IMG/VR virus record: IMGVR_UViG_2778261574_000002
DNA from: a virus
Lineage: Duplodnaviria > Heunggongvirae > Uroviricota > Caudoviricetes
Strand: one strand, 5' to 3'
DNA length: 64,000 bases
In this document: positions 2,303 through 42,450 of the stretch, one piece after another
Layout of the letters: each line of letters begins with the position of its first letter
How positions within the stretch are numbered: the first letter of the stretch is position 1
Notes under the pieces: generated by a model
What the model was told of the DNA's origin: nothing
The model's input: only the letters and a program-made list of their open reading frames with translations
Databases searched by the model: none
Translations under genes and position numbers: made by a program

Positions 2303-2891
2303 GTATGCAACGGTCGATTTTGACCAGGTTAATGAAAAGGGGCTGAAATCCCTTATCGCGGCGATCAATAAAACCGGTGTTACGGTAATTGAGGTTGACT
2401 CCAGCAACCGCGCAACAACGAAAGATGGCGTTAAAGTTAAAACCGCAAAGCTGGTTCTTAACGACGGACAAATTCTTGCCATACAGGTAAACGATACTGG
2501 CGATATATCGTCTGTGAAGCTGAATGGAAAAGCTATTCCTAACGCTCAGTCGCCGGATATCAAGACGCTTGGTACCGTCATGGGGCAAGCGGCCCGCAAA
2601 AACTCCGCAAAATTCCAGAAATCACTGATCGCCAAAGCGAAACGTGTTGCCAATCCGGTAGACAAGAAACCGGCAGTAAAATCCAACTTTCAGCGCCTGC
2701 AAGAGGCAAAACAGCGGAATGCTCAGGTGGTTGCCGCTTATAAATCAGCGCAGAACTCGGTGTCTTTCAATCAACAGCAGATCACTGATTTGCGGGCGAA
2801 GCTGGATAAGGAGACAGGCCGACTCAATAACGAAAAGGCCCGAAATGGCGAACTCAAACGCCGTCTTAAGCAACTGAAAGCAGGAAATTAA
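2280..2891 (+). CDS. hdf: Hdf, homolog of a DarA N-terminal fragment
   Basis: contains NSAKFQ..AKAK segment also present in the following DarA (NSAKFQRAQKKKK); immediately precedes darA; start may be the ATG at 2289. Confidence 0.7.
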   Translation: MCQMTKNKYATVDFDQVNEKGLKSLIAAINKTGVTVIEVDSSNRATTKDGVKVKTAKLVLNDGQILAIQVNDTGDISSVKLNGKAIPNAQSPDIKTLGTVMGQAARKNSAKFQKSLIAKAKRVANPVDKKPAVKSNFQRLQEAKQRNAQVVAAYKSAQNSVSFNQQQITDLRAKLDKETGRLNNEKARNGELKRRLKQLKAGN

Positions 2892-2892
2892 C

Positions 2893-4812
2893 ATGGAACA
2901 GTTCAATATCAATAAAGGGGTGACGATCAAGCCTGGGCTTGACGTGCTTCCCCCGCCAGTGACTGATGATGAATATCGCGCATTAATGGCCGGTGAGGAC
3001 CGCTATCTGATGACGGAATCCAACACCCTGGAGGAAATCGAGGCTACGTTCTTCTATGACACGCCGATCCACTGGTGTGCTACGGATTTACTGGAGGCGA
3101 TTAGTTCTACTCGTTTGCAGTTACACCGGACCATGCAGGCATTTGTCCGGGCATTGAACCAGAAGCTGAATGGTACCGGAATCTCTGCGGGGAGTGATAA
3201 AACGGGGGATGTGGCCCAGAGCGGCGCGCGCGCGATCGGCGGCGCTGAAATTGGCCGGGCACGTAACGTTAACGGGCTGCCGGTCCTGCCAGCCATTATT
3301 CCGCTCAGTGATGGTCAGACTATCAGCATTCTGTTTCATAGCCCGACAGCGGAAAACCGGATCACCAATAGCGATACGCTGGTTGCTTTCCAGTTCTTAC
3401 TGAATAAAAAAGACGTTACTCACACCGTTGCTCCGATGAGTGGACGTGATATGACGCTGGCGCAGGTCACCATGAAACTTGCCAACCTTGCAGAGAAAAA
3501 CTCGGCAAAATTCCAGCGTGCGCAGAAGAAGAAAAAAGCCCTTGTTGATGAAATAACCCAACTACAGGCTGACAGTGACCAGAAAGAGGATGCCATGAGC
3601 GACCTCGCGGATCAGGTGGCAGCGGTAGAAGGGCAGAAGGCAGATCTGGAGCAGAAAATTAACGCTGTTGCATCGGAAGCGGATTCTCTTTATGAAGAGA
3701 ATGAGCGTTTGCAGACGGAGATTGATCAGCTCAATCGCACTGGTGGGCGCGATACCATTGCTCCAGCGGGGATGACTGGTGGGCACTCTCGCGCGCTGAC
3801 GGATCGCCTTGCCAGTATCAAAAATCGTATGCATATGGACGGGGAAGCGACGCTCAGTAATGGTGCATCAATGAAGCAATTCATTGGGGATGGCGAAGGG
3901 TATATCCAGTTAACCGATCCGGATGGCAGCGTATACATGATCAAGGCTAAATCCATACAGGGTGTGGACATGGCAGATGCGATCGGCAAGCTGTTTAAAG
4001 CCTATAAAGCGGGTAATGTATCGGAATATCTGGTCCAACCAGAAGAACATAAACCGGAAAACGTCGAACCTGAACCAGCGGAGGATACCGGTAGCTCTTC
4101 GCCTGAACCAGAAGTCTCTGTAGGTGCATATCGATATGCCCTGCAAATGCGTCCGGCGGCCCCTGGCGCAATACCTGAAGGTAACAAAGCGATTCTGCCG
4201 CGCCCTGATGAAGGTGACCCGTATTATGAATATGCACGCTACGGCATTGCTACTTACGATACCCCGCTTTCTGATCAGCAAATGAGTGAGTACGACCTGA
4301 AGTTATTGCCTCGCGAGGATTCTTTCGACTTCCTGGCGAAGACACTTACTAATGGTCCGTTTGGCAAATATGCACAAAAAGCTCTGGAGCTGGCCACCAG
4401 CTCACCAGACGAGTTCCGCGTAATGCTGAAAACTCAGTTTCAAAAAACTTTCCCCAATATTGCGTTTCCTGGGGGAGCTGGCACCGAGAAAATGGTGCAG
4501 AGCATGATCAATGCATTGCAGGCCGAAGTCGGTGAGATTACTCAGCCAGAACCGGCCCCGGCACAGCCTGATGAAACGGTTAGCGAAGCAGATGCAGAGG
4601 CTAATAAAGCCATTGAATATCTCAATAACGTGATGGATATGAAAAGCACTGACATGGCGGAGATCCGTAACGCCCGGGGCAATGTCCGGGAAGCGATTGC
4701 AGCCCTTCAGGCTGCCGGACGTTTTGAGGAAAACGAAGAGCTGGTTAACGGCGCAGCTCGCCACCTGGCTGATCTGCTGGTAGCAATCCAGAAAGCGGGG
4801 GTAGCGGCATGA
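2893..4812 (+). CDS. darA: DarA, internal head protein of the anti-restriction Dar system
   Basis: 639 aa, same length as P1 DarA; Ala/Glu-rich with coiled-coil core; operon context hdf-darA-ddrA-ddrB. Confidence 0.85.
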   Translation: MEQFNINKGVTIKPGLDVLPPPVTDDEYRALMAGEDRYLMTESNTLEEIEATFFYDTPIHWCATDLLEAISSTRLQLHRTMQAFVRALNQKLNGTGISAGSDKTGDVAQSGARAIGGAEIGRARNVNGLPVLPAIIPLSDGQTISILFHSPTAENRITNSDTLVAFQFLLNKKDVTHTVAPMSGRDMTLAQVTMKLANLAEKNSAKFQRAQKKKKALVDEITQLQADSDQKEDAMSDLADQVAAVEGQKADLEQKINAVASEADSLYEENERLQTEIDQLNRTGGRDTIAPAGMTGGHSRALTDRLASIKNRMHMDGEATLSNGASMKQFIGDGEGYIQLTDPDGSVYMIKAKSIQGVDMADAIGKLFKAYKAGNVSEYLVQPEEHKPENVEPEPAEDTGSSSPEPEVSVGAYRYALQMRPAAPGAIPEGNKAILPRPDEGDPYYEYARYGIATYDTPLSDQQMSEYDLKLLPREDSFDFLAKTLTNGPFGKYAQKALELATSSPDEFRVMLKTQFQKTFPNIAFPGGAGTEKMVQSMINALQAEVGEITQPEPAPAQPDETVSEADAEANKAIEYLNNVMDMKSTDMAEIRNARGNVREAIAALQAAGRFEENEELVNGAARHLADLLVAIQKAGVAA

Positions 4813-5186: not shown

Positions 5187-8174
5187 ATGAGCTTAAGCGA
5201 TCAGGTGGTTATGGCCACCAGCATAGAAACGCTGATCGAGCTGCTAAAGAACCTGCCCGATTATGGGCGGGTTTCGTATGTGGTGACAGCGAAGGGAGAC
5301 GAGGTAAAAACAGCGTTTGATATCGTCGATGCCTCGGCTCTTTTGGTATCCAATACTCTGGACGGGAAAATTAATCCGGACTATCCCCAGGAACTTCAGC
5401 CGCGCGACCGGACCCGCGCATCCAGCCTTCTTCAGGTTAACCAGATATCCAAAGATTTGCGACCTGCTCAGCTTACCGATTCCGGTTTATCCAGCCATGG
5501 CGCGCCGATAATTGGTGAGGACAATGCCGTTGAGTCGGGTAATGGACGGACCATGGGGATCATTAAAGCCTATCAGGACGGCAATGCGGATCGGTATCGG
5601 GAGTATCTGATTGAACATGCGACCGAATTCGGCATACGACCTGAAAAGGTTGAATCAATGACGGCCCCGGTACTGGTGCGCCGCCGGTTAACTAAGGTTG
5701 ACCGCGTTCAGTTTGCCAAGGACTCAAATATTTCTGATCTTCAGGAAATGGCAGCCAGTGAAAAGGCTTTTGTTGATGCCGACAACATAACTTCGGCGAT
5801 GATGGCGCTGTTTAACCCGTCAGAAAGCGGAGATCTGCTTAGCCGCAGTAATGACGCGTTTATCCGCGGATTCATGACGCAAGTTGGTGCCACACAGGCT
5901 GCTGGCCTTGTAACGGAAGATGGGCGACCAACACGGCAACTTGTAGACCGTATACAAAACGCGATCTTTGCCAAGGCATATAAGGATGCGCGCCTGGTAA
6001 GGATGGTTGCAGAAGAACCTGATCCAGATATGCGTAATGTTCTGACGGCGCTTAATGCGGCAGCCAATGATTTTGTCCAGATGCAGGCTTTATCAGGTGA
6101 AGCGCACAAGCAGGCTGTGACAACTATTGTTGATGGTATTGAGACAGCGGATAGTCTCGATAAAAAGGCGCTGGCGGCATTGAAAGATGCGGTAGACCTG
6201 GTAAGGCAATCGAAGGAGTCAGGCCAACATATTACCGATGTTATTGCTCAGGGGGATATGTTCAGCGAAACGGCCCCGGAAGTGAAAGCACTCGCGTTGT
6301 TTATCGTCGCGAATAACCGTAGCGCGAAGCGTATGGCCACCGCCTTTAAGTTGATGGCGCAACGTATCAATGATGAGTTACAGCACCAGGGCCAGGCGCT
6401 CGGGGATATGTTTGGCGGCGGCGATGTGTCGTTACAGGATATCCTTCGCCAGGTGTCTCAGGAACTGGAAAACGAAGGTATGCAAGGGATATCCAGCGGT
6501 CTTTTCGAGTCAGCTTCCGGCGGTAGTTACAACGGTGTTGCTCCATATACCAGTTTGCTATTACATCGGGCATCCGGCATCAAAGACATTATTCATCTGA
6601 TCAGGCTGCTTTCCCGTACAGATCCCCAGGATGAACAGCTTGTACAAGTGCTTGCGCATTTTGTTCGAATGCCTGTTGCCGACGTGAAAAAATGGTGCCG
6701 ATTATTCGGTATCAGCAATTCGTTACTTCGCGGCTTGTTAAATCACGCATCCTCCCTTGGGCGCGATGGCTTTGACGAGATAGCGCAGGCGATAAAAAAC
6801 GGAGATATGCCACCAGCTATTGACTGGTTTTCCATTCGCCCAACCAGGGTGAAAGCATTCCTTAGCGCGGCGCATTCGGCATCACCATTGGCAGAAATGG
6901 TTCAGAGGTTGTCGCTCATATTCACAGATCATACCGCGTTGGGTGATCTGACTCTTGACGAGATGAAAGAAGCCTCCATTCAGTGGGCCGATCAACAAAA
7001 TGAGGTTAACTCTGACTTCTTGCCAGCATTCAGGAAGGCCGTTAGTAAAGCGGATGATGCCCGTGGAATTCTGAAGGCATTTAAGGCATTGCAAAGTCGG
7101 GTTAATAAACATGTCGGTGGTATCGATGGAGTAACGGCGGAAGGCAGGGATATCCTTAAAGAGCACGGCATAACGCCAGAGTTTATTGATGAGATCAGGA
7201 CGGATATGCAGCGTGAGGTCGTATCGTCCCTGCAAATTGTAGCCAGGGCGTTGGCGGATGCTAATCCGAAGAGTGCGGCCATTGTTAACCGGGTTATTGG
7301 TGATATTGAAGCATCGGAGGGCATGGGGGCGCTGAAACTCTTCCTTTCGCGAGCGTTTAATCCTAACGGCAATATTCTCCCTGGCATTATTGGTGAGGCT
7401 AAAAAGTATGTCAGTGAAGAAGAACTTGAGCAGCTTGACCAACTACTTAAGCGATTCTCATATAACCCGCAGACACGCTGGCAAATGAATCAGCGAAGTA
7501 TGGGGTCGGTCCACGAGAAAGTGTTATCTGCCATGAACAGTGCGATCGCAAACTCATCCGTATCTGAAGAAAAAGCTCTTGAGTGGGCCGACTCTTTTAT
7601 CACGGAAGAAGTGGAAGAAGCCCGCGCTGGACAGAATGGTGGGATAGACCTGCGCAAGGAACTTGCTGATATTTATCGCCTGACCGGCGGGAAAATATCG
7701 ACCTTATCAAAGGTGATTCACCACCAGGGAAGGGCATATGCAAATCTAAATGGTGTTGTTGCTGTCAATTTGAACGATGAAAATGCAAGTGCACTGTGGC
7801 ACGAGCTGGGTCATCATCTTGAGTACAGTAACCCTGGTTTGTTAGAGAAAGCCCGGTCATTCCTGAAGGCCAATGTTGAAGGGGATAAGCCATCATTCGT
7901 CAATATCGGTGGGCGTGGCAAGCCTGAATGGTGCTTCAGATCTCGATTGAGTAATATTTATATGGCGAAGGTATACCCGCCAGTCTCAGTGAGTAACTCA
8001 GGGAAAATTCGGCAGAAATCACCGACTATTTCCAAAACGTCAGCAACGGAAGTATTCTCTATGGCTCTTCAGTTGTATCATGACAAAGAGGCCGCTGCCG
8101 CATCACTGATGAATGGTGACGGATTGCTGGAACTGTTATTAGGTGTGGCAAAGGAACTAAATAATGCAGATTAA
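5187..8174 (+). CDS. ddrB: DdrB, large head-associated Dar component
   Basis: 995 aa, follows ddrA; size and position match P1 DdrB. Confidence 0.7.
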   Translation: MSLSDQVVMATSIETLIELLKNLPDYGRVSYVVTAKGDEVKTAFDIVDASALLVSNTLDGKINPDYPQELQPRDRTRASSLLQVNQISKDLRPAQLTDSGLSSHGAPIIGEDNAVESGNGRTMGIIKAYQDGNADRYREYLIEHATEFGIRPEKVESMTAPVLVRRRLTKVDRVQFAKDSNISDLQEMAASEKAFVDADNITSAMMALFNPSESGDLLSRSNDAFIRGFMTQVGATQAAGLVTEDGRPTRQLVDRIQNAIFAKAYKDARLVRMVAEEPDPDMRNVLTALNAAANDFVQMQALSGEAHKQAVTTIVDGIETADSLDKKALAALKDAVDLVRQSKESGQHITDVIAQGDMFSETAPEVKALALFIVANNRSAKRMATAFKLMAQRINDELQHQGQALGDMFGGGDVSLQDILRQVSQELENEGMQGISSGLFESASGGSYNGVAPYTSLLLHRASGIKDIIHLIRLLSRTDPQDEQLVQVLAHFVRMPVADVKKWCRLFGISNSLLRGLLNHASSLGRDGFDEIAQAIKNGDMPPAIDWFSIRPTRVKAFLSAAHSASPLAEMVQRLSLIFTDHTALGDLTLDEMKEASIQWADQQNEVNSDFLPAFRKAVSKADDARGILKAFKALQSRVNKHVGGIDGVTAEGRDILKEHGITPEFIDEIRTDMQREVVSSLQIVARALADANPKSAAIVNRVIGDIEASEGMGALKLFLSRAFNPNGNILPGIIGEAKKYVSEEELEQLDQLLKRFSYNPQTRWQMNQRSMGSVHEKVLSAMNSAIANSSVSEEKALEWADSFITEEVEEARAGQNGGIDLRKELADIYRLTGGKISTLSKVIHHQGRAYANLNGVVAVNLNDENASALWHELGHHLEYSNPGLLEKARSFLKANVEGDKPSFVNIGGRGKPEWCFRSRLSNIYMAKVYPPVSVSNSGKIRQKSPTISKTSATEVFSMALQLYHDKEAAAASLMNGDGLLELLLGVAKELNNAD

Positions 8175-8472
8175 AATCGCAGCGCCATTAGGCGGAGATG
8201 CCATTATCGAATTTGATGATAATGAAGAAGTTTCCGGGCGTTTAAGCATTATCTCCGGTGACATTACCGAGGACATGATCGCTGAAGCCATAGCTGGAGC
8301 AAATCCCAATAGCTATATGGGATTCGTTAACACCCTTGATGCTCCCGCAAGTGATGTTCTCCGAACGCTGCATCTTTACGCTGGCTGGTTTGTTGATTGG
8401 CCAGCAGTAGATGGTGGTGATGAGGACGACGACGATGATTTTGGTGATCATATAGACCAGATCATATATTAA
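8164..8472 (+). CDS. hypothetical acidic protein
   Basis: ATG after AAGGA, overlaps ddrB stop; C-terminal DGGDEDDDDDFGD acidic tail. Confidence 0.4.
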   Translation: MQIKIAAPLGGDAIIEFDDNEEVSGRLSIISGDITEDMIAEAIAGANPNSYMGFVNTLDAPASDVLRTLHLYAGWFVDWPAVDGGDEDDDDDFGDHIDQIIY

Positions 8473-8475
8473 AGA

Positions 8476-8500
8476 AATCCCGCCAATCGGCGGGATTTTT
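8476..8500. terminator. rho-independent terminator hairpin, bidirectional position
   Basis: AAATCCCGCC-AATC-GGCGGGATTT followed by T run; sits between convergent + and - operons. Confidence 0.6.
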
Positions 8501-8503
8501 ACC

Positions 8504-9598
8504 TCACGAGAAGCTCTTTTCTGATGTCAGCCAACAGTGCTCGTGCAAATCTCTTGGTGGTTTTTCGACAAATGCCTCTTCAGCCACATCCTGCCAGGGG
8601 ATTTGTTTAGCCCATTCAGCTATAGCGTTATGGTTTGCCGAGAATAACGGTATTGTATAGGCCTTCAGCCAGTCTAATGTGCTGGAGTTGTGTTTTTGAG
8701 CGTGATGTTTCGCATGGTGTTTGGCGATCACGATCGTAGGCACTACCCATTTACTACCGTCAGTCATTGTGAAGTGCATATTACGGGGAACAGATGACTT
8801 TTCCATCAACTCCCGAATCCCGGGAAATTTCCCCAAGATCAATCGGCGATATTCATCGCTATTGCGCCCACCAAACTCTTTGGCTTTGAATTCAAGATAT
8901 GCTTCAGAAACGAGAGGTGAATCCTCTGTGTTTAGAGTTATCGCCGTGAAAAAACCAGCAGGATTGTTTTTACTATGGGCCAACCGGTGATGCGAATCAT
9001 AAAAGTACCCTTTCTCGCGTTCCGATGGTTTCGACAGCAACAGCAGGCGCGAGTCATAATTGGTTAAATTGCCAGTTATCACTGCATGAGCGCGATCGCT
9101 GATTTCCGCCGAGTTAATAACGATGAAAAGATCGTGCGGTCCAGTAAAACCAGCCAGAGACACTTCGTTATTCAGACAATAGGTTATATAGACGCATCCC
9201 CATATTTCACTGATATGCACCAACCCTTTGTCAGGGTGCATTCTGAAATGATTGCCAAGAAAAGGGTGTTTTTGGGTAACTCGCTCCCAATAACGGAACA
9301 TATAGTCAATTATTGTTTTTCGACTATCGTTAATAGCAGGAGAAACAACCACTGTACGGGAACACGAATACAGTATTGTTTGCAGGATGCTAATCACTGC
9401 CACAATAGAGGTTTCCCCAATACCATGTGGTGTGGTGGCAGTGACTTTGGCTCCGGTGTTCTTTATCGCGTTAATAATTTTTGCTTGATGAGGTGTTAAC
9501 TCAATATCAAGCAACTCTTTCGCTGCCAGTTCCCAATTGTCTTTATACTGTTCTATCAGTGCTAACCAGGCAGGTTCATTCTGTATACGATTAGTCAC
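8504..9598 (-). CDS. PacB-like terminase large-subunit paralog, ATPase-like domain only
   Basis: segment LLLLSKPSEREKGYFYDSHHRLA..FTAITLNTEDSPLV aligns with Pac[36 protein letters not shown]; Walker A position reads PHGIGETS (Lys replaced). Confidence 0.6.
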   Translation of the reverse strand: MTNRIQNEPAWLALIEQYKDNWELAAKELLDIELTPHQAKIINAIKNTGAKVTATTPHGIGETSIVAVISILQTILYSCSRTVVVSPAINDSRKTIIDYMFRYWERVTQKHPFLGNHFRMHPDKGLVHISEIWGCVYITYCLNNEVSLAGFTGPHDLFIVINSAEISDRAHAVITGNLTNYDSRLLLLSKPSEREKGYFYDSHHRLAHSKNNPAGFFTAITLNTEDSPLVSEAYLEFKAKEFGGRNSDEYRRLILGKFPGIRELMEKSSVPRNMHFTMTDGSKWVVPTIVIAKHHAKHHAQKHNSSTLDWLKAYTIPLFSANHNAIAEWAKQIPWQDVAEEAFVEKPPRDLHEHCWLTSEKSFS

Positions 9599-10385
9599 TT
9601 TCCACCTCTTCCGTGGTGTTTTCTTGCAGTTCTGTTAATGCAGCACGACACAGGTTCCGGGCCTTGGCTATAGCCACACTTTTGACTTCATCTGTCATCG
9701 TGCAGGTAATGTACTGATCGAGTTCTTCAGCGCGGATGATGCTTTTGCCAATCAGAAACTGTATTTGCCAGAGCAGATCGGCATCCATAATCAGAATTTC
9801 TGCCGGGCCTTCAGGGCCAGCCGGGAAGGAAACATAAGACTGTTTGCCAAGGCCGATAACTCGACAACTTGCTTCAAGAATTGCGCGCTTGAGGTCTGAC
9901 TTTGTAACTGAAACAGGTTGATTTTCACCTGCGATTACGCCGTTGACATGGATGTGGAAGGGCATGTAGCTTGAAATTCGCTCTACTTTCCATACGCCAG
10001 CAAGCGATCCTTCATGCAGCACAATGGGGGTAACAGCGAGTTTCATCTCACCATATAACTGCTGGCAGATAGCTGGATTGCTGAATACATCCAAAGGTTC
10101 ACACTCAAACAGCGGTGCAATCTGCATGAGGTCCATCATGGTCATACCTGGGGTACGAGCGGTAATGAATCTGCGCATGCCAGTATCCATTGTTCGCCAG
10201 ATAGCTACACCATGCTTTTTGCTCACTTCTTCAGTAAAGCCAAGGTGGCACATGATGGTTTTTTCGATAGCCAGATCAGAGATAGAAACCTTTTCGCCTG
10301 GCACTCCATCATTATTGATGGTCACTTCGACACTCTGGCCATTACGTAGGCGGTATTGAATGGTTTTAGTATTTTGTGCTGTCAT
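9591..10385 (-). CDS. hypothetical protein, co-transcribed with ssb
   Basis: 264-aa ORF with 8-nt overlap onto the PacB-like gene; no recognisable motif. Confidence 0.5.
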   Translation of the reverse strand: MTAQNTKTIQYRLRNGQSVEVTINNDGVPGEKVSISDLAIEKTIMCHLGFTEEVSKKHGVAIWRTMDTGMRRFITARTPGMTMMDLMQIAPLFECEPLDVFSNPAICQQLYGEMKLAVTPIVLHEGSLAGVWKVERISSYMPFHIHVNGVIAGENQPVSVTKSDLKRAILEASCRVIGLGKQSYVSFPAGPEGPAEILIMDADLLWQIQFLIGKSIIRAEELDQYITCTMTDEVKSVAIAKARNLCRAALTELQENTTEEVESD

Positions 10386-10582
10386 AGTCTTTTCTCTGCT
10401 TAAAAACTGATGTATTGCGCCTTCAGGTTGGTTAGGAATGTTTTCCCACCAGCGAAAGCAATATCTCGGGGTGTTCTATTCGTTAAAAGCGCGTGCCATT
10501 GCCAACTTTGGCGTTTTTGAGCGAGTTCGTGCTTTTGTCGGCGTCTGGACCACCGCTTTTCTTTCAGTCGTTTTTTACACAT

Positions 10583-11071
10583 TCAAAACGGAATATCGTC
10601 GTCAAAGTCCATTGGAGGTTCGTTATTGGCGTTGCTCTGAGGTTTACCGCCACCACTGTATTGCTGGTGGTTTTGAGGTTGGTTTGATTGCCCCCAGCCA
10701 TTTGAGGACTGTGAATCGTCACGGCGAGCGCCGATCATTTGCATGGTGCCGCCCTGGCTGACGATAATTTCCGTCGTGTAACGTTCTACACCGGCGTCAT
10801 CTGTCCACTTACGGGTTTTAAGTTTCCCTTCGATGTAGACCTGAGAACCTTTTCGTAAATATTCACTCGCAATTTCAGCAAGTTTCCCGAACAAAACGAC
10901 TTTATGCCATTCTGTTTGCTCTTTCTGTTGGCCCGTTTGCTTGTCGCGCCATGATTCATTCGTTGCGATGCTGAGTCTTCCGACCGCGCCGCCATTTGGT
11001 ATATGCCTGATCTCCGGGTCTTGCCCCAGGGTACCAATCAGGATGACTTTGTTTACACCGCGTTGTGCCAC
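10583..11071 (-). CDS. ssb: single-stranded DNA-binding protein
   Basis: OB-fold N-terminus [20 protein letters not shown], Gly/Gln-rich linker, acidic tail DFDDDIPF. Confidence 0.9.
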
Positions 11072-11090
11072 TTATCTTACCTAATAAAAT

Positions 11091-11107
11091 AAATTAATTA
11101 GAGCAAT
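11091..11107 (-). promoter_or_regulatory. C1 repressor operator-like site
   Basis: AAATTAATTAGAGCAAT, 1 mismatch to the reverse complement of ATTGCTCTAATAAATTT; just upstream of ssb. Confidence 0.6.
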
Positions 11108-11240
11108 AATGTATATCTTTGAAACGTAGCTAACAAGTGATTTGCATTATCCTGTGTCTTCTAAAGGGATCGAGTCAGTCGGTATTGGCTGTGAATGGGT
11201 GTTTGTCCTGGAGCGTAAAAAATTCGCTTATGAGGTCTTT

Positions 11241-11798
11241 ATGAAGGGAAAAACAGCCGCAGGAGGCGGTGCAATTTGCGCTATCGCGGTGATGATTACC
11301 ATCGTGATGGGTAATGGCAATGTGCGAACCAACCAGGCGGGGCTTGAGCTGATTGGTAACGCTGAAGGTTGCCGACGTGATCCATACATGTGCCCGGCAG
11401 GGGTATGGACTGACGGGATCGGTAATACACACGGGGTAACGCCGGGTGTGCGAAAAACAGACCAGCAAATCGCCGCTGATTGGGAAAAGAATATCCTGAT
11501 CGCTGAACGCTGTATTAATCAGCACTTCCGGGGCAAAGACATGCCCGATAATGCCTTCAGCGCAATGACAAGCGCGGCATTCAATATGGGATGCAATAGT
11601 TTACGGACCTACTACAGCAAAGCGCGAGGCATGCGAGTCGAAACGTCCATCCACAAGTGGGCGCAGAAAGGGGAATGGGTGAATATGTGTAACCATCTCC
11701 CTGATTTTGTGAACAGTAACGGCGTCCCCCTGCCCGGGTTAAAGATTCGCCGTGAAAAAGAACGCCAGCTTTGCCTGACGGGGCCGGTCAATGAATAA
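11241..11798 (+). CDS. lyz: SAR endolysin Lyz (T4-lysozyme fold)
   Basis: 185 aa; N-terminal SAR segment with Cys13, Cys44, Cys51 exactly as described for P1 Lyz; EGCRRDPYMCPAGVWTDGIGNT lysozyme core. Confidence 0.9.
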   Translation: MKGKTAAGGGAICAIAVMITIVMGNGNVRTNQAGLELIGNAEGCRRDPYMCPAGVWTDGIGNTHGVTPGVRKTDQQIAADWEKNILIAERCINQHFRGKDMPDNAFSAMTSAAFNMGCNSLRTYYSKARGMRVETSIHKWAQKGEWVNMCNHLPDFVNSNGVPLPGLKIRREKERQLCLTGPVNE

Positions 11799-23904: not shown

Positions 23905-24092
23905 AGCGCCCCTACAAAAAAGAAAAGCCACCAGCGGCGGCTTAGCAATACAACAAAAGGTAGCGCCCGGTACTCAGACTGTGCCGTCCATGGAATATTT
24001 GAAAAGGGATCCATCCGTACCGGGCATGTGATGATTCTGACTGAAGTCACTTGTCAGTTGTCAATTATTTCAGATTAAAAATAATATATTTA

Positions 24093-26787: not shown

Positions 26788-26804
26788 AGAATTATTAGAG
26801 CAAT
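26788..26804 (-). promoter_or_regulatory. C1 operator (Op99 cluster)
   Basis: AGAATTATTAGAGCAAT, 2 mismatches; between loxP and coi. Confidence 0.55.
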
Positions 26805-26870: not shown

Positions 26871-26887
26871 ATTGCTCTAATAAATTA
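26871..26887 (+). promoter_or_regulatory. C1 operator (Op99 cluster)
   Basis: ATTGCTCTAATAAATTA, 1 mismatch to consensus. Confidence 0.65.
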
Positions 26888-28321: not shown

Positions 28322-29806
28322 TTATTCATTAAGCCATGCCAGAGCTTCATCAACCTGCGCTTCGTCTTCGACGCTAAGCACTTCATCCTGGGGAACATAA
28401 TCCGCCAGCATAGCGAAACAATATGTATCCCAATGGTCTGGTGAGTGCAGGTTGAGTTTTTTCTTCATATCCTCCTTACTCATCACCTTCCATTGACCTG
28501 CGGAGTTAATCCCTACAGGGATTTTCGACGCTTCCTCAATAGTTTCATTACCCTTATCCAGTCTCATACGACCAGATTTTACGGCCTCTGCGGCTTGAAC
28601 GTTGGCATAAGCACGTTTATCAAAGTACAGGCTCTTATCTTCACGGCTATGCATCTTTTTACCCCAGCGTATACGCTGTACGGTAATACCATAATACTCG
28701 TACATCAGATCCGCCGTTGCTTTACCCAAGCCATCGCCGTCTATCGCTATGGTGATATTTGGGAATCGCTCAGGATTGCATTCTGCGAAAATTTTGGCGG
28801 CAAGCTGCGTTTCTGTAACGTCTGTGTATTCCAGCATTCGATAGTTGATTACACGGCGTTTATTTCGCTGGCCGGACACCATCATGATATTGATAACGGA
28901 CTTATCCCGTCCCGTACCACCAGCAACGTCCACACATGCAAGCCAGCCCCATCCTTTGGCAATCTTGACTTTCCGCCGCGTTGCACGTTCAACCTCATCA
29001 CGTCCAAGAAGGAAGCCATCCTGTGATTTAGGGAATAGGCCGCGTACCTTAATCATGTACATAGGGTTATCACGCCCGCCGTACTCCGCCAGCTTCATTT
29101 TGATAAATGCTGGCGTTACCAGCGGTGATTCCTCACTGTTAAGCGTGATCGCCGTATAAACGCCATCAGGGTTACCAGGACGCTTGGCCAGTTTATGGTG
29201 TGTATCGTAGAAATAGCCGCTTGGGCGTGTAGGCTGTGACAGTAATAAGATGCGGTTATCCTGTCCGGTAAGAGCACCGGTGATGATACCGAAAGCTCTA
29301 TCACTGACACCGGAGGCTTCATCGATAATATACAGAAGATGATCTGCGTGTTCACCGGCGAGAGCTTCTTCACTTCCCAGACGAAAGCCCTTCGGTACTA
29401 CAGTCCATACACCTTTACCAGTAACCTCATAGAAAGCGGTTTCTGTCAGAACAAAATAATCAGCAAGCCATGGGAAACGGCTGGTGGCAGTAGCCCAGTT
29501 TATCTTGATGTACTTGAATATACCGGTCATTACCTGCTGAATTTTGTTCGCAACGATAATGGCGCGGGCACCGGGATACATGATTATGAACAACATGATC
29601 ATGATAGAAGTCATGTCTGATTTCCCGGTACCGTGACCAGACGAAACAGATGTCTTGCTACCCTGTTCCTGCACAGACTCAATAATCAGATCCTGCTGCC
29701 AGGTAGGTGTTTTGCCGAACAAAACATCAGCGGCAGCAATCCAGTCATAACGATATAGCGCCACCAGCTCGCGCCAACGTGGATCCGTTACGCAACTTCT
29801 GGCCAT
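28322..29806 (-). CDS. pacB: PacB terminase large subunit
   Basis: 494 aa; Walker A GHGTGKS; downstream of pacA with 1-nt overlap. Confidence 0.9.
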
Positions 29807-30999
29807 TAATCATCATCCCCGTATAGCTTGCGGGTAACTTCTTCGTCTTCCTCCTCGTCTTCGTCCAGGTCTTGTTCCAGCCATGGGTCGTTTGATACAC
29901 CTTCAGTATCAACATCTCCATAACCGCCTGTATCAACGATATCGGCGATTTCTTCCCTACGCTGCTCAATCCACAATGCGGCATCGGCGCGGCGGTTGGC
30001 GGCCCGTTCTCGCGCAACTTTGTCCAGATCTTCAAGAGAAGGGCCACCGACGGCTGTTTGCCTTTCCTCATCATCGGTATTGGTCTTCGGAGCACGCAGA
30101 TCGGCTTTGATTTGCTCCAGCATCAGGGGCGGCACTTTCCCGCCATGCGCCTCGATGAATTCAGCTGCTTCCAGCACTGACCAGTTATTTTCACGCTTTC
30201 GTTCGTATGCCAGCTTAACAATGCCAGCTTGCCCCATAGACAAAGCGTGCTTTTCCGCCTCCCGGCTTTCTTTTCGATAGTTATTCCGGATGCTGTAAAT
30301 GGTGTTGATCAGGCTGCTTATCTGCGCGGAACAGCTGTTTAGCATGCTCGCGATACGGTATTCAGGCGGAGTACCTTCATCATCGTCCTTTTGCTGATCG
30401 CGCATTTCCTGCACCAGGCGAATACACGTATCCCTGGCGTTCTCCAGCATAAGGAGATGAGAAAGAGACTTTTCAAGAAGAGTGGTTTCCAGAACATCGG
30501 CCCCGGACCGACGCAACATAGCGCGCGCGGCCTTCCGCGCTTCAACGTTATCTATCAGGTAATCGCCAGCTTCGAATTCAAAGCGTTCACCATCATCATC
30601 CAGGGTGTCGCGTTCCAGGCGATCACGTAAGGTCCGGTGGGCGCGGGTGATCACGTCATGATCATCTGAACGATCATTTATGCGCTTATTTTGGCGCTTC
30701 GCATTCTCGACTGCGGCACTGACAACGGCATTAACTCTCTGTTTTTCCGCTATTTCAGCCGCAATATGATCACCTGCATGTTGATCATTAGAGTGATCAA
30801 TGATCATGCTTTTTAGTGGCTTCCTGACTGGCTTATTTGGCTTGCGGCTGTCCGCAGTCCTGGTGTCTTCTTTGAAGGCACGGAGATAACGACGTGCGGT
30901 ATTAGGGTTAAGATTAAACTCGGCGGCATACTGTGCGATGGTGTAACCACCATCTCGCGCCAGGCGAGCAAAATTCTTTTTGTGATCGTCCCAGGTCAC
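29806..30999 (-). CDS. pacA: PacA terminase small subunit (contains pac site)
   Basis: 397 aa; N-terminal HTH-like region; the pac hexamer clusters lie inside this ORF. Confidence 0.9.
30620..30806. other. pac packaging site
   Basis: two clusters of TGATCA/G hexamers (30621-30676 and 30767-30806) separated by about 90 bp, the P1 pac architecture with Dam GATC sites. Confidence 0.75.
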
Positions 31000-34067: not shown

Positions 34068-34319
34068 TTATTTTTTTGGTGCATCCTCGTTCTGATACAC
34101 CGGATCGCTCCCTTTTGGCAACTGGAGGCTTAACTGCCGGTAGTGCCGTAGCCGTTCCATGAAATAGGCGCGCAGGTTTTCCGGTTGCTCACGGGCCACC
34201 TGCTCTGCAATCACAGGTATATTCAGCCGTTCTTTGTAAGCAACGCCGCTGGCGGCAAGGTCTACGTTCACCTTGTCTCGCTCTTCCTGGCTTTTAGCTG
34301 CTATATTTCGATCTGACAC
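34068..34319 (-). CDS. hot: Hot, homolog of DNA pol III theta subunit
   Basis: 83 aa [43 protein letters not shown] closely parallels E. coli HolE. Confidence 0.8.
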
Positions 34320-42433: not shown

Positions 42434-42450
42434 AGATTTATTAGAGCAAT
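42434..42450 (-). promoter_or_regulatory. C1 operator
   Basis: AGATTTATTAGAGCAAT, 1 mismatch. Confidence 0.6.

Follow-up and report, generated by a model that had tools for sequence, protein, structure and literature searches.

The locus considered here raises the question of why a phage with a complete packaging terminase should carry a second copy of the ATPase domain of that enzyme, stripped of the residues that would make it work, in what may be an operon with ssb. The window (the whole stretch of 64,000 nucleotides that was analyzed) is a P1-like phage-plasmid in the orientation opposite to that of the P1 map, and its first 25 kb are 98% identical to the Punavirus MH422554. It contains pacA (29806–30999) and an intact pacB beside c1 and cre. 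A further gene, encoding a protein of 364 residues related to PacB, lies downstream of ssb (Table 1).

A PacB paralog that has kept the ATPase fold and lost the catalytic motifs

A first-pass annotation, made from the sequence of the window, had placed the reading frames for the 364-residue protein and for a 264-residue protein upstream of it on the minus strand, and both lie where it had put them. It had also reported that the 364-residue protein aligns with the ATPase half of PacB over more than 100 residues. A pairwise BLASTP comparison with the PacB of the window extended this considerably, to 34% identity over 276 residues (E = 1e-54), an alignment that takes in the whole N-terminal ATPase domain. 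The identity is unevenly spread, being 45–54% in residues 161–262 and 23–28% in the P-loop half. Structure prediction agreed with this relationship: an AlphaFold2 model based on 72 homologs (pLDDT > 90 for residues 1–260) has the large-terminase ATPase fold, and Foldseek matched it best, in the PDB and BFVD, to the TerL ATPase domains of Sf6 gp2, HK97, P74-26, D6E, and T4 gp17. Among the PHROGs, the protein matched phrog_5902 (E = 1e-183), which has no assigned function, and the terminase large subunit family phrog_2 (E = 9e-8). Neither Pfam nor NCBIfam held a match to it or to the 264-residue protein, although both libraries also miss PacB itself.

The catalytic motifs of PacB are not retained in this fold. 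The first-pass annotation had read PHGIGETS at the position of the PacB Walker A motif, GHGTGKS; this is the exact translation of residues 57–64, and re-inspection revealed no lysine. The Walker B motif, which it had passed over, is gone too (FIVINSA vs. YIIDEAS in PacB), and the coupling C-motif, SQPT in the PacB clade, reads SKPS. The absence of the nuclease half, also noted at that stage, was confirmed in that residues 265–364 are a different domain, without profile similarity to the PacB nuclease. Of the five features that define a TerL, the protein therefore has one, an N-terminal ASCE/RecA-like ATPase fold homologous to TerL, and misses four (Walker A lysine, Walker B Asp-Glu pair, C-motif, and nuclease), so that the label "terminase large subunit" that it bears in MH422554 is misleading. 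With the Walker A lysine, both Walker B acids, the QPT motif, and the nuclease lost, the protein cannot drive packaging or cut pac. It is an accessory paralog of the PacB ATPase domain in which the fold has been kept and the catalytic motifs have been lost, and the original description of it as an inactivated terminase ATPase paralog is well supported.

The C-terminal domain of about 100 residues has a separate history. A MAFFT alignment hinted that it might be a shrunken nuclease domain, an idea that was ruled out by hhalign (probability 0.1% for the C-domain profile against the PacB nuclease domain) and by homologs of 80–123 residues that stand alone. The domain has no sequence relative in the PDB, and a relationship to Dbn was checked and rejected; it also matches the C-terminus of phrog_17928, and in the relative P0140 it is placed N-terminally. 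In an unrelated GC-rich phage, the gene for an intact PacB-like TerL is followed after 360 nt by one for a standalone homolog. In three P1-like loci, a standalone homolog follows the homolog of a 456-residue window ORF (54359–55729) that is presumably the P1 Ban helicase.

Table 1. Positions of the 364-residue protein gene, its neighbors, and its intact paralog in the window
Feature	Position	Strand	Basis or remark
364-residue PacB-ATPase paralog (X364; phrog_5902)	8504–9598	-	GTG start; 8-nt overlap with isaA stop
Residues 1–262 of the 364-residue protein: TerL ATPase fold, catalytically degenerate	8813–9598	-	BLASTP, AlphaFold2, Foldseek
Walker A remnant PHGIGETS (residues 57–64; Gly to Pro, Lys to Glu)	9407–9430	-	
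Walker B remnant FIVINSAE (Asp to Ile, catalytic Glu to Asn)	9104–9127	-	
Residues 265–364 of the 364-residue protein: His-rich domain of ~100 residues, no assigned function	8507–8806	-	
IsaA, 264 residues (phrog_2326)	9591–10385	-	97% identity to P1 IsaA residues 57–320
Very basic 60-residue ORF (pI 11.6), between ssb and isaA	10400–10582	-	
ssb	10583–11071	-	PF00436, E = 4e-39
C1 operator (Op21/Ossb of P1)	11091–11107	-	1 mismatch to consensus
10-bp GC-rich hairpin, T-runs on both strands	8475–8498		Likely bidirectional terminator for the 364-residue protein gene and the convergent hxr
PacB, intact large terminase (GHGTGKS, IIDEAS, nuclease domain)	28322–29806	-	Functional paralog

A clade of motif-degenerate relatives

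An exhaustive HMMER search of 1.84 billion representative sequences identified 624 relatives of the 364-residue protein. The closest of these are all motif-degenerate (P0121, P0123, P0125, P0126, P0127, P0130, P0131, P0159, P0176, and the orthologs derived from the loci described below), and intact PacB-like terminases of about 500 residues appear among the relatives from 37% identity downward. In a neighbor-joining distance tree of 76 ATPase domains, calculated without bootstrap, 12 degenerate sequences are monophyletic and sister to the P1-type PacB clade. The degenerate clade spans at least 11 clusters below 50% identity. The loss of the motifs holds for the whole of it: the position of the Walker A lysine is occupied by E, R, T, C, I, M, or H, the Asp-Glu pair of Walker B and the QPT motif are missing from every member, and the glutamine and threonine of SQPT, invariant in the PacB clade, are lost. 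Residues of the fold core have been kept (G59, G61, A149-G150, G197, F199, S227-P228, G243-G244, G256, and F258), as has the glutamine of the Q-motif, Q38. Many members have 250–266 residues, corresponding to the ATPase domain alone, and P0127 (444 residues) has a different C-terminal extension. By these comparisons, the dead terminases are a conserved, monophyletic family and not a one-off. We found no loci for P0125, P0126, P0131, and P0159 in viral, genome, and metagenome collections, and a tblastn search of plasmids with P0125 returned more distant relatives only.

The pattern of conservation bears on whether members of the clade might still be active NTPases that use non-canonical residues. 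That Q38 and the P-loop glycines G59 and G61 are invariant in the clade would be in keeping with such an activity. Against this, the first glycine of the P-loop is replaced by proline and no conserved residue of any kind occupies the lysine, aspartate, or glutamate positions across the clade; because the lysine position varies so freely, retained nucleotide chemistry is argued against, and we give an active NTPase a next to negligible probability.

The ssb operon, the RD-2 locus, and other genomic contexts

The interval between ssb and hxr is the known variable region RD-2, or region 2, of P1-like phage-plasmids (PMC6906374, PMC9603915). Neither this identity nor the fact that canonical P1 is without the 364-residue protein gene had been recorded in the first-pass annotation. 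By blastn, the window and P1 cease to be homologous 24 nt into the reading frame of the 364-residue protein, and P1 has at the same locus an unrelated AT-rich isaB and a simple IS1 insertion with a 9-bp target duplication. The "IS1-associated" isaA/isaB region of P1 is hence the same locus with the same IsaA, while its IsaB is the product of an unrelated gene and not a fragment of the gene studied here. The possibility that IS1 had split the latter into the isaA and isaB of P1 was refuted by the point at which homology ends, the lack of relationship to IsaB (E = 0.08), and the intact 9-bp duplication. In a CRISPRi screen of P1, isaA, isaB, and ssb were all dispensable (PMC10695390).

In the window, a C1 operator, ATTGCTCTAATTAATTT, is located 20 nt upstream of ssb (one mismatch, with a chance expectation of 0) and is followed on one strand by the tightly packed genes for Ssb, the 60-residue ORF, IsaA, and the 364-residue protein. 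The 60-residue ORF begins right at the ssb stop, is separated from isaA by 14 nt, and is intact in five variants, one of which has a 5-nt indel upstream. The Shine-Dalgarno sequence of the 364-residue protein gene, GAGGTG, sits inside the 3' end of isaA, with which the gene overlaps by 8 nt, and a strong hairpin follows its stop codon. Between ssb and the 364-residue protein gene we found no promoter-like or terminator-like site, and an Rfam search over positions 8000–11400 returned nothing credible. The shared strand, the tight packing, the lack of an internal promoter or terminator, the terminal hairpin, and the C1 operator make it plausible that the gene is co-transcribed with ssb from the C1-operated promoter, and that it is hence expressed early.

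The 264-residue protein is IsaA of P1, as its 97% identity makes clear, a correspondence that the first-pass annotation had missed; the 320-residue annotation of IsaA in P1 is probably over-extended. IsaA has no match in Pfam or the PDB and no detectable family, and its AlphaFold2 model was unusable (pLDDT 46). A search of PADLOC-DB at E ≤ 1 yielded no match for IsaA, the 364-residue protein, or Hxr. We considered IsaA as a diverged PacA (TerS) and rejected this, as BLASTP gave E = 8.2 and hhalign a probability of 0.2% for the IsaA profile against PacA. IsaA, whose gene is translationally coupled upstream, is a frequent but not obligate partner of the 364-residue protein.

To what extent the gene is maintained can be judged from its distribution. 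It is full-length in 119 of 120 PLSDB records (from Escherichia, Salmonella, Klebsiella, and Shigella) and, among 5,426 complete E. coli genomes, in each of the 100 (about 2%) in which it occurs; the annotation there is simply "hypothetical protein." By comparison, isaA is found in 336 PLSDB records and PacB at ≥90% identity in about 408, so that the gene is missing from about two thirds of the isaA-carrying plasmids. Among close alleles, dN/dS was 0.28–0.64 for the 364-residue protein gene and about 0.1 for IsaA and Ssb; purifying selection on the gene is weaker than on its neighbors. In the allele of E. albertii, 16 of 21 substitutions fall within residues 94–146, a cluster for which diversifying selection or a recombination tract could be responsible.

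These data allow us to weigh the possibility that the gene is a decaying relic of a duplicated pacB without present function. In favor of a relic, every catalytic motif has been lost, dN/dS is above that of the neighbors, the gene is missing from P1 and from about two thirds of the isaA-carrying plasmids, and in one variant (L025) the C-terminus of the protein is frameshifted. However, such decay is difficult to reconcile with frames that are intact in nearly every plasmid match and every genome match, with orthologs at 47–53% identity that retain length, domain order, and the overlapping, translationally coupled start, or with an old, monophyletic clade of so many divergent clusters in which the fold-core residues are conserved. 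We therefore regard a functionless relic as very improbable.

Outside of RD-2, members of the degenerate clade bring the number of accessory or variable loci of P1-like elements in which we found them to four, often near IsaA. A second E. coli P1-like lineage, whose PacB and C1 are about 50% and about 21% identical to those of the window, has an IsaA homolog (46–48% identity) directly upstream of an ortholog of the 364-residue protein (47–53%); these two genes, downstream of pacB-c1-cre, follow dut and a DUF2829 gene and are themselves followed by doc/phd. We take DUF2829 to be the family of the anti-Thoeris protein Tad2. In P1-like elements of Citrobacter and Klebsiella, the gene for a 263-residue clade member has an ATGA overlap with the stop codon of ref and is followed by mat; here an IsaA-like gene of 25% identity follows a dut-like gene 2.7 kb upstream. 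The 444-residue member, P0127, is found among homologs of the window ORF at 34068–34319 (77% identical), presumably hot of P1, and of neighboring ORFs. The theme common to these contexts is a location in cargo hot spots and early-type operons. Because homologs in three other P1-like lineages adjoin dut/DUF2829, ref/mat, or hot homologs, the linkage of the 364-residue protein gene to ssb is not a conserved one and is incidental.

The same neighborhoods could be taken to suggest that the dead fold and its C-domain were recruited, independently of packaging, as a replication or recombination adaptor that acts with SSB, Ref, dUTPase, or Ban. The neighbors in C1-type early operons are compatible with this: the gene of the window comes after ssb, the Citrobacter/Klebsiella member overlaps ref, IsaA homologs follow dut in two lineages, and the standalone C-domain follows ban in three P1-like loci. 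Conversely, the neighbors change with every lineage, such that no single partner is conserved, and adjacency carries little meaning in loci that are known cargo hot spots. We also found no DNA-binding motif or charge bias in the protein (pI about 7), and PacB specifically is the protein with which it shares its most conserved segment. An adaptor role is consequently one that we consider rather doubtful.

Possible roles and comparison with known systems

The roles suggested in the first-pass annotation, in DNA binding, recombination, or packaging control, are conjectural. The reading that we favor, although tentatively, is that the 364-residue protein is a mimic of PacB that competes for a partner of PacB and so modulates or blocks the initiation of packaging, either by its own phage early in the cycle or by a rival P1-like element. 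Under this proposal the protein would act without catalysis, by binding. Residues 161–262, the segment best conserved with PacB, may still offer PacA, pac DNA, the portal, or other PacB subunits a surface to bind. If made from the C1-controlled ssb promoter, the protein would be present ahead of the late synthesis of PacA and PacB, and its competition with a PacB-type terminase could then damp or block packaging initiation, the target being premature pac cleavage of the phage's own DNA or the terminase of a rival.

Several lines of evidence led us to this reading of the protein. The most PacB-like part of it is the C-terminal half of the ATPase domain, and its operon anatomy and C1 operator point to an early-type placement ahead of the late PacAB. 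The gene occupies RD-2, and other members of the clade further variable loci, of the type associated with conflict; purifying selection on the gene is weaker than on its neighbors. It is maintained, as judged from the intact frames, orthologs at about 50% identity of the same architecture, and a dN/dS below 1. The C-domain homolog downstream of an intact TerL in an unrelated phage is also consistent with a link to packaging. P1 packages normally without the gene and the locus is not required, so that a contribution of the protein to packaging by its own phage would be non-essential. There are points against a PacB mimic as well: a poison of PacB-type motors should also threaten the PacB of the phage that makes it, IsaA shows no similarity to PacA, and in several of the contexts clade members or the C-domain adjoin genes of DNA metabolism (ssb, dut, ref, and ban) rather than of packaging.

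The early placement in a hot spot, the weaker purifying selection, and the substitution cluster at residues 94–146 would suit a decoy in counter-defense, that is, an early TerL look-alike that blocks or titrates host sensors (Avs1-3 and Upx) before the real PacB appears. These sensors recognize the TerL ATPase domain, Upx independently of its catalytic residues (PMC13601566). A gene of the DUF2829 family beside the module in another lineage could be read in the same direction. However, binding of the TerL fold normally activates Avs/Upx sensors rather than switching them off, Avs2 and Avs3 read an ATP-loaded active site, which the 364-residue protein does not have, and the standalone TerL-like protein vs.8 of T4 is toxic with EcAvs2 (PMC13601566). 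The protein also had no PADLOC match, and the literature that we searched, the coverage of which was incomplete, contained no precedent for a terminase decoy and no description of a degenerate PacB paralog. We judge a decoy to be unlikely.

Returning to the PacB mimic, a broader form of the proposal is that the whole degenerate clade, often together with IsaA, is an early conflict weapon that poisons rival PacB-type packaging or blinds TerL-detecting sensors. This is speculative and, on balance, somewhat improbable; if true, it would be the first "pseudo-terminase" inhibitor known from nature. Few phage enzymes are as conserved or as thoroughly studied as large terminases, which are now known as targets of bacterial immune sensors, and a conserved, widely distributed family that has the fold of the motor minus all of its chemistry suggests a second, binding-only use of that fold. 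Should packaging be regulated or sabotaged in this way, there would be consequences for generalized transduction by P1, for terminase-sensing immunity, and for the competition among phage-plasmids that spread resistance genes. In the meantime, the analysis corrects the database entry for MH422554 and probably also that for IsaA of P1.

Among known systems, the closest in sequence is PacB of P1 and its TerL clade, the sister clade of the degenerate proteins, with which the 364-residue protein shares its N-terminal helices, lid region, and predicted fold. It differs from PacB in having no catalytic motifs, no RNase-H-like nuclease, and an extra, unrelated C-terminal domain, and the two genes differ in that one belongs to an early-type operon in a cargo hot spot, is dispensable, and has a patchy distribution, whereas the other belongs to the late pacAB. 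T4 vs.8 resembles the 364-residue protein, by description, in being a second, nuclease-less copy of a TerL ATPase domain outside of the packaging module (PMC13601566). It is reported to keep Walker A and Walker B and to activate EcAvs2, whereas the 364-residue protein has lost both motifs. Compared by description, vs.8 is the nearest analog in the literature that we searched. Pseudoenzymes are known to act as dominant-negative or scaffold copies of ring ATPases, and the 364-residue protein resembles them in that the fold is kept, the catalytic residues are lost throughout the clade, the gene is intact, and dN/dS is below 1, an analogy that we offer as a lead.

Allelic variation and annotation of the 364-aa gene

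The allele of the 364-aa gene carried by E. albertii pEA50_2 (comparison locus L024, 2601-3695) differs from that of the window (8504-9598) at 21 amino acids, 16 of which cluster within residues 94-146; this stretch is a recombination tract or, alternatively, a diversifying patch. In phage vB_EcoM-813R1 (L025, 428-1498) the C-terminus is frameshifted, giving a shorter protein of 356 aa that ends in ...NHQEICTSTVG. The gene is labeled "terminase large subunit" in GenBank MH422554 (L001, 2705-3799) and "hypothetical protein" by RefSeq/PGAP. The former label is misleading, because the protein has neither any catalytic motif nor a nuclease domain.

Standalone C-terminal domains, and dead PacB paralogs in other loci

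Separate genes encode the ~100-aa C-terminal domain alone (see table). In three P1-like loci (L026, L027, and L028) such a gene follows a homolog of window ORF 54359-55729, which we take to be, probably, the Ban helicase, and in L030, from a GC-rich phage, the gene of an intact PacB-like large terminase lies 360 nt upstream of it. The standalone domain had no similarity to the 101-aa product of window ORF 54057-54362, which is probably P1 Dbn.

The start of the 263-aa dead PacB paralog of L022 and L023 shares four nucleotides (ATGA) with the ref stop, and mat comes next; the equivalent place in the window (23932-24092) is a gap of just 160 nt. Besides the DUF2829 gene upstream of the isaA/dead-PacB pair in the second E. 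coli P1-like lineage, there is one in the ssb-hxr locus of phage vB_EcoM-Ro157c2YLVW.

Coordinates of features in the window and in the comparison loci (L-numbers)
Feature	Location	Strand	Context
Standalone C-domain gene	L026 6004-6300		directly after ORF 54359-55729 homolog
Standalone C-domain gene	L027 2444-2740		directly after ORF 54359-55729 homolog
Standalone C-domain gene	L028 5971-6291		directly after ORF 54359-55729 homolog
Standalone C-domain gene	L030 5992-6534		GC-rich phage
Locus of dead PacB paralog (263 aa, no C-domain)	L022 5330-6792; L023 5330-6792		Citrobacter/Klebsiella P1-like elements
dut + DUF2829 gene	L007 4288-5237		directly upstream of isaA/dead-PacB pair, second E. coli P1-like lineage
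60-aa ORF	window 10400-10582	-	occupies ssb-isaA gap
Hairpin, perfect 10-bp, GC-rich, T-runs both sides	window 8475-8498		between convergent hxr and 364-aa gene
C1-operator-like sites	window 26788-26804; 26871-26887; 42434-42450; 48200-48216; 62400-62416		≤2 mismatches
C1-operator-like overlapping pair	window 58867-58894		≤2 mismatches
isaB and IS1	L002 (P1 AF234172) 2785-4400		P1 isaB/IS1 region

Putative terminator, C1-operator-like sites and comparison with P1

The hairpin looks like a bidirectional terminator common to hxr and the 364-aa gene. Seven further C1-operator-like sites (each with at most two mismatches) were found in the window, none of them in the vicinity of pacA/pacB.

The ssb stop is directly adjoined by the ATG of the 60-aa ORF, whose product is strongly basic (pI 11.6) and which is uninterrupted in all five variants compared, one having a 5-nt insertion upstream. 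IsaA is annotated in P1 as a protein of 320 aa, i.e., with an N-terminal extension; because a stop codon interrupts this extension both in the window and in two further variants, the ATG at 10385 is the probable start of IsaA. P1 isaB, which is AT-rich and encodes 201 aa, was rejected as a relative of the 364-aa gene, the two being unrelated. In P1, IS1 separates isaA from isaB; it is a simple insertion with the 9-bp direct repeat TGCCCTCTG on both sides.
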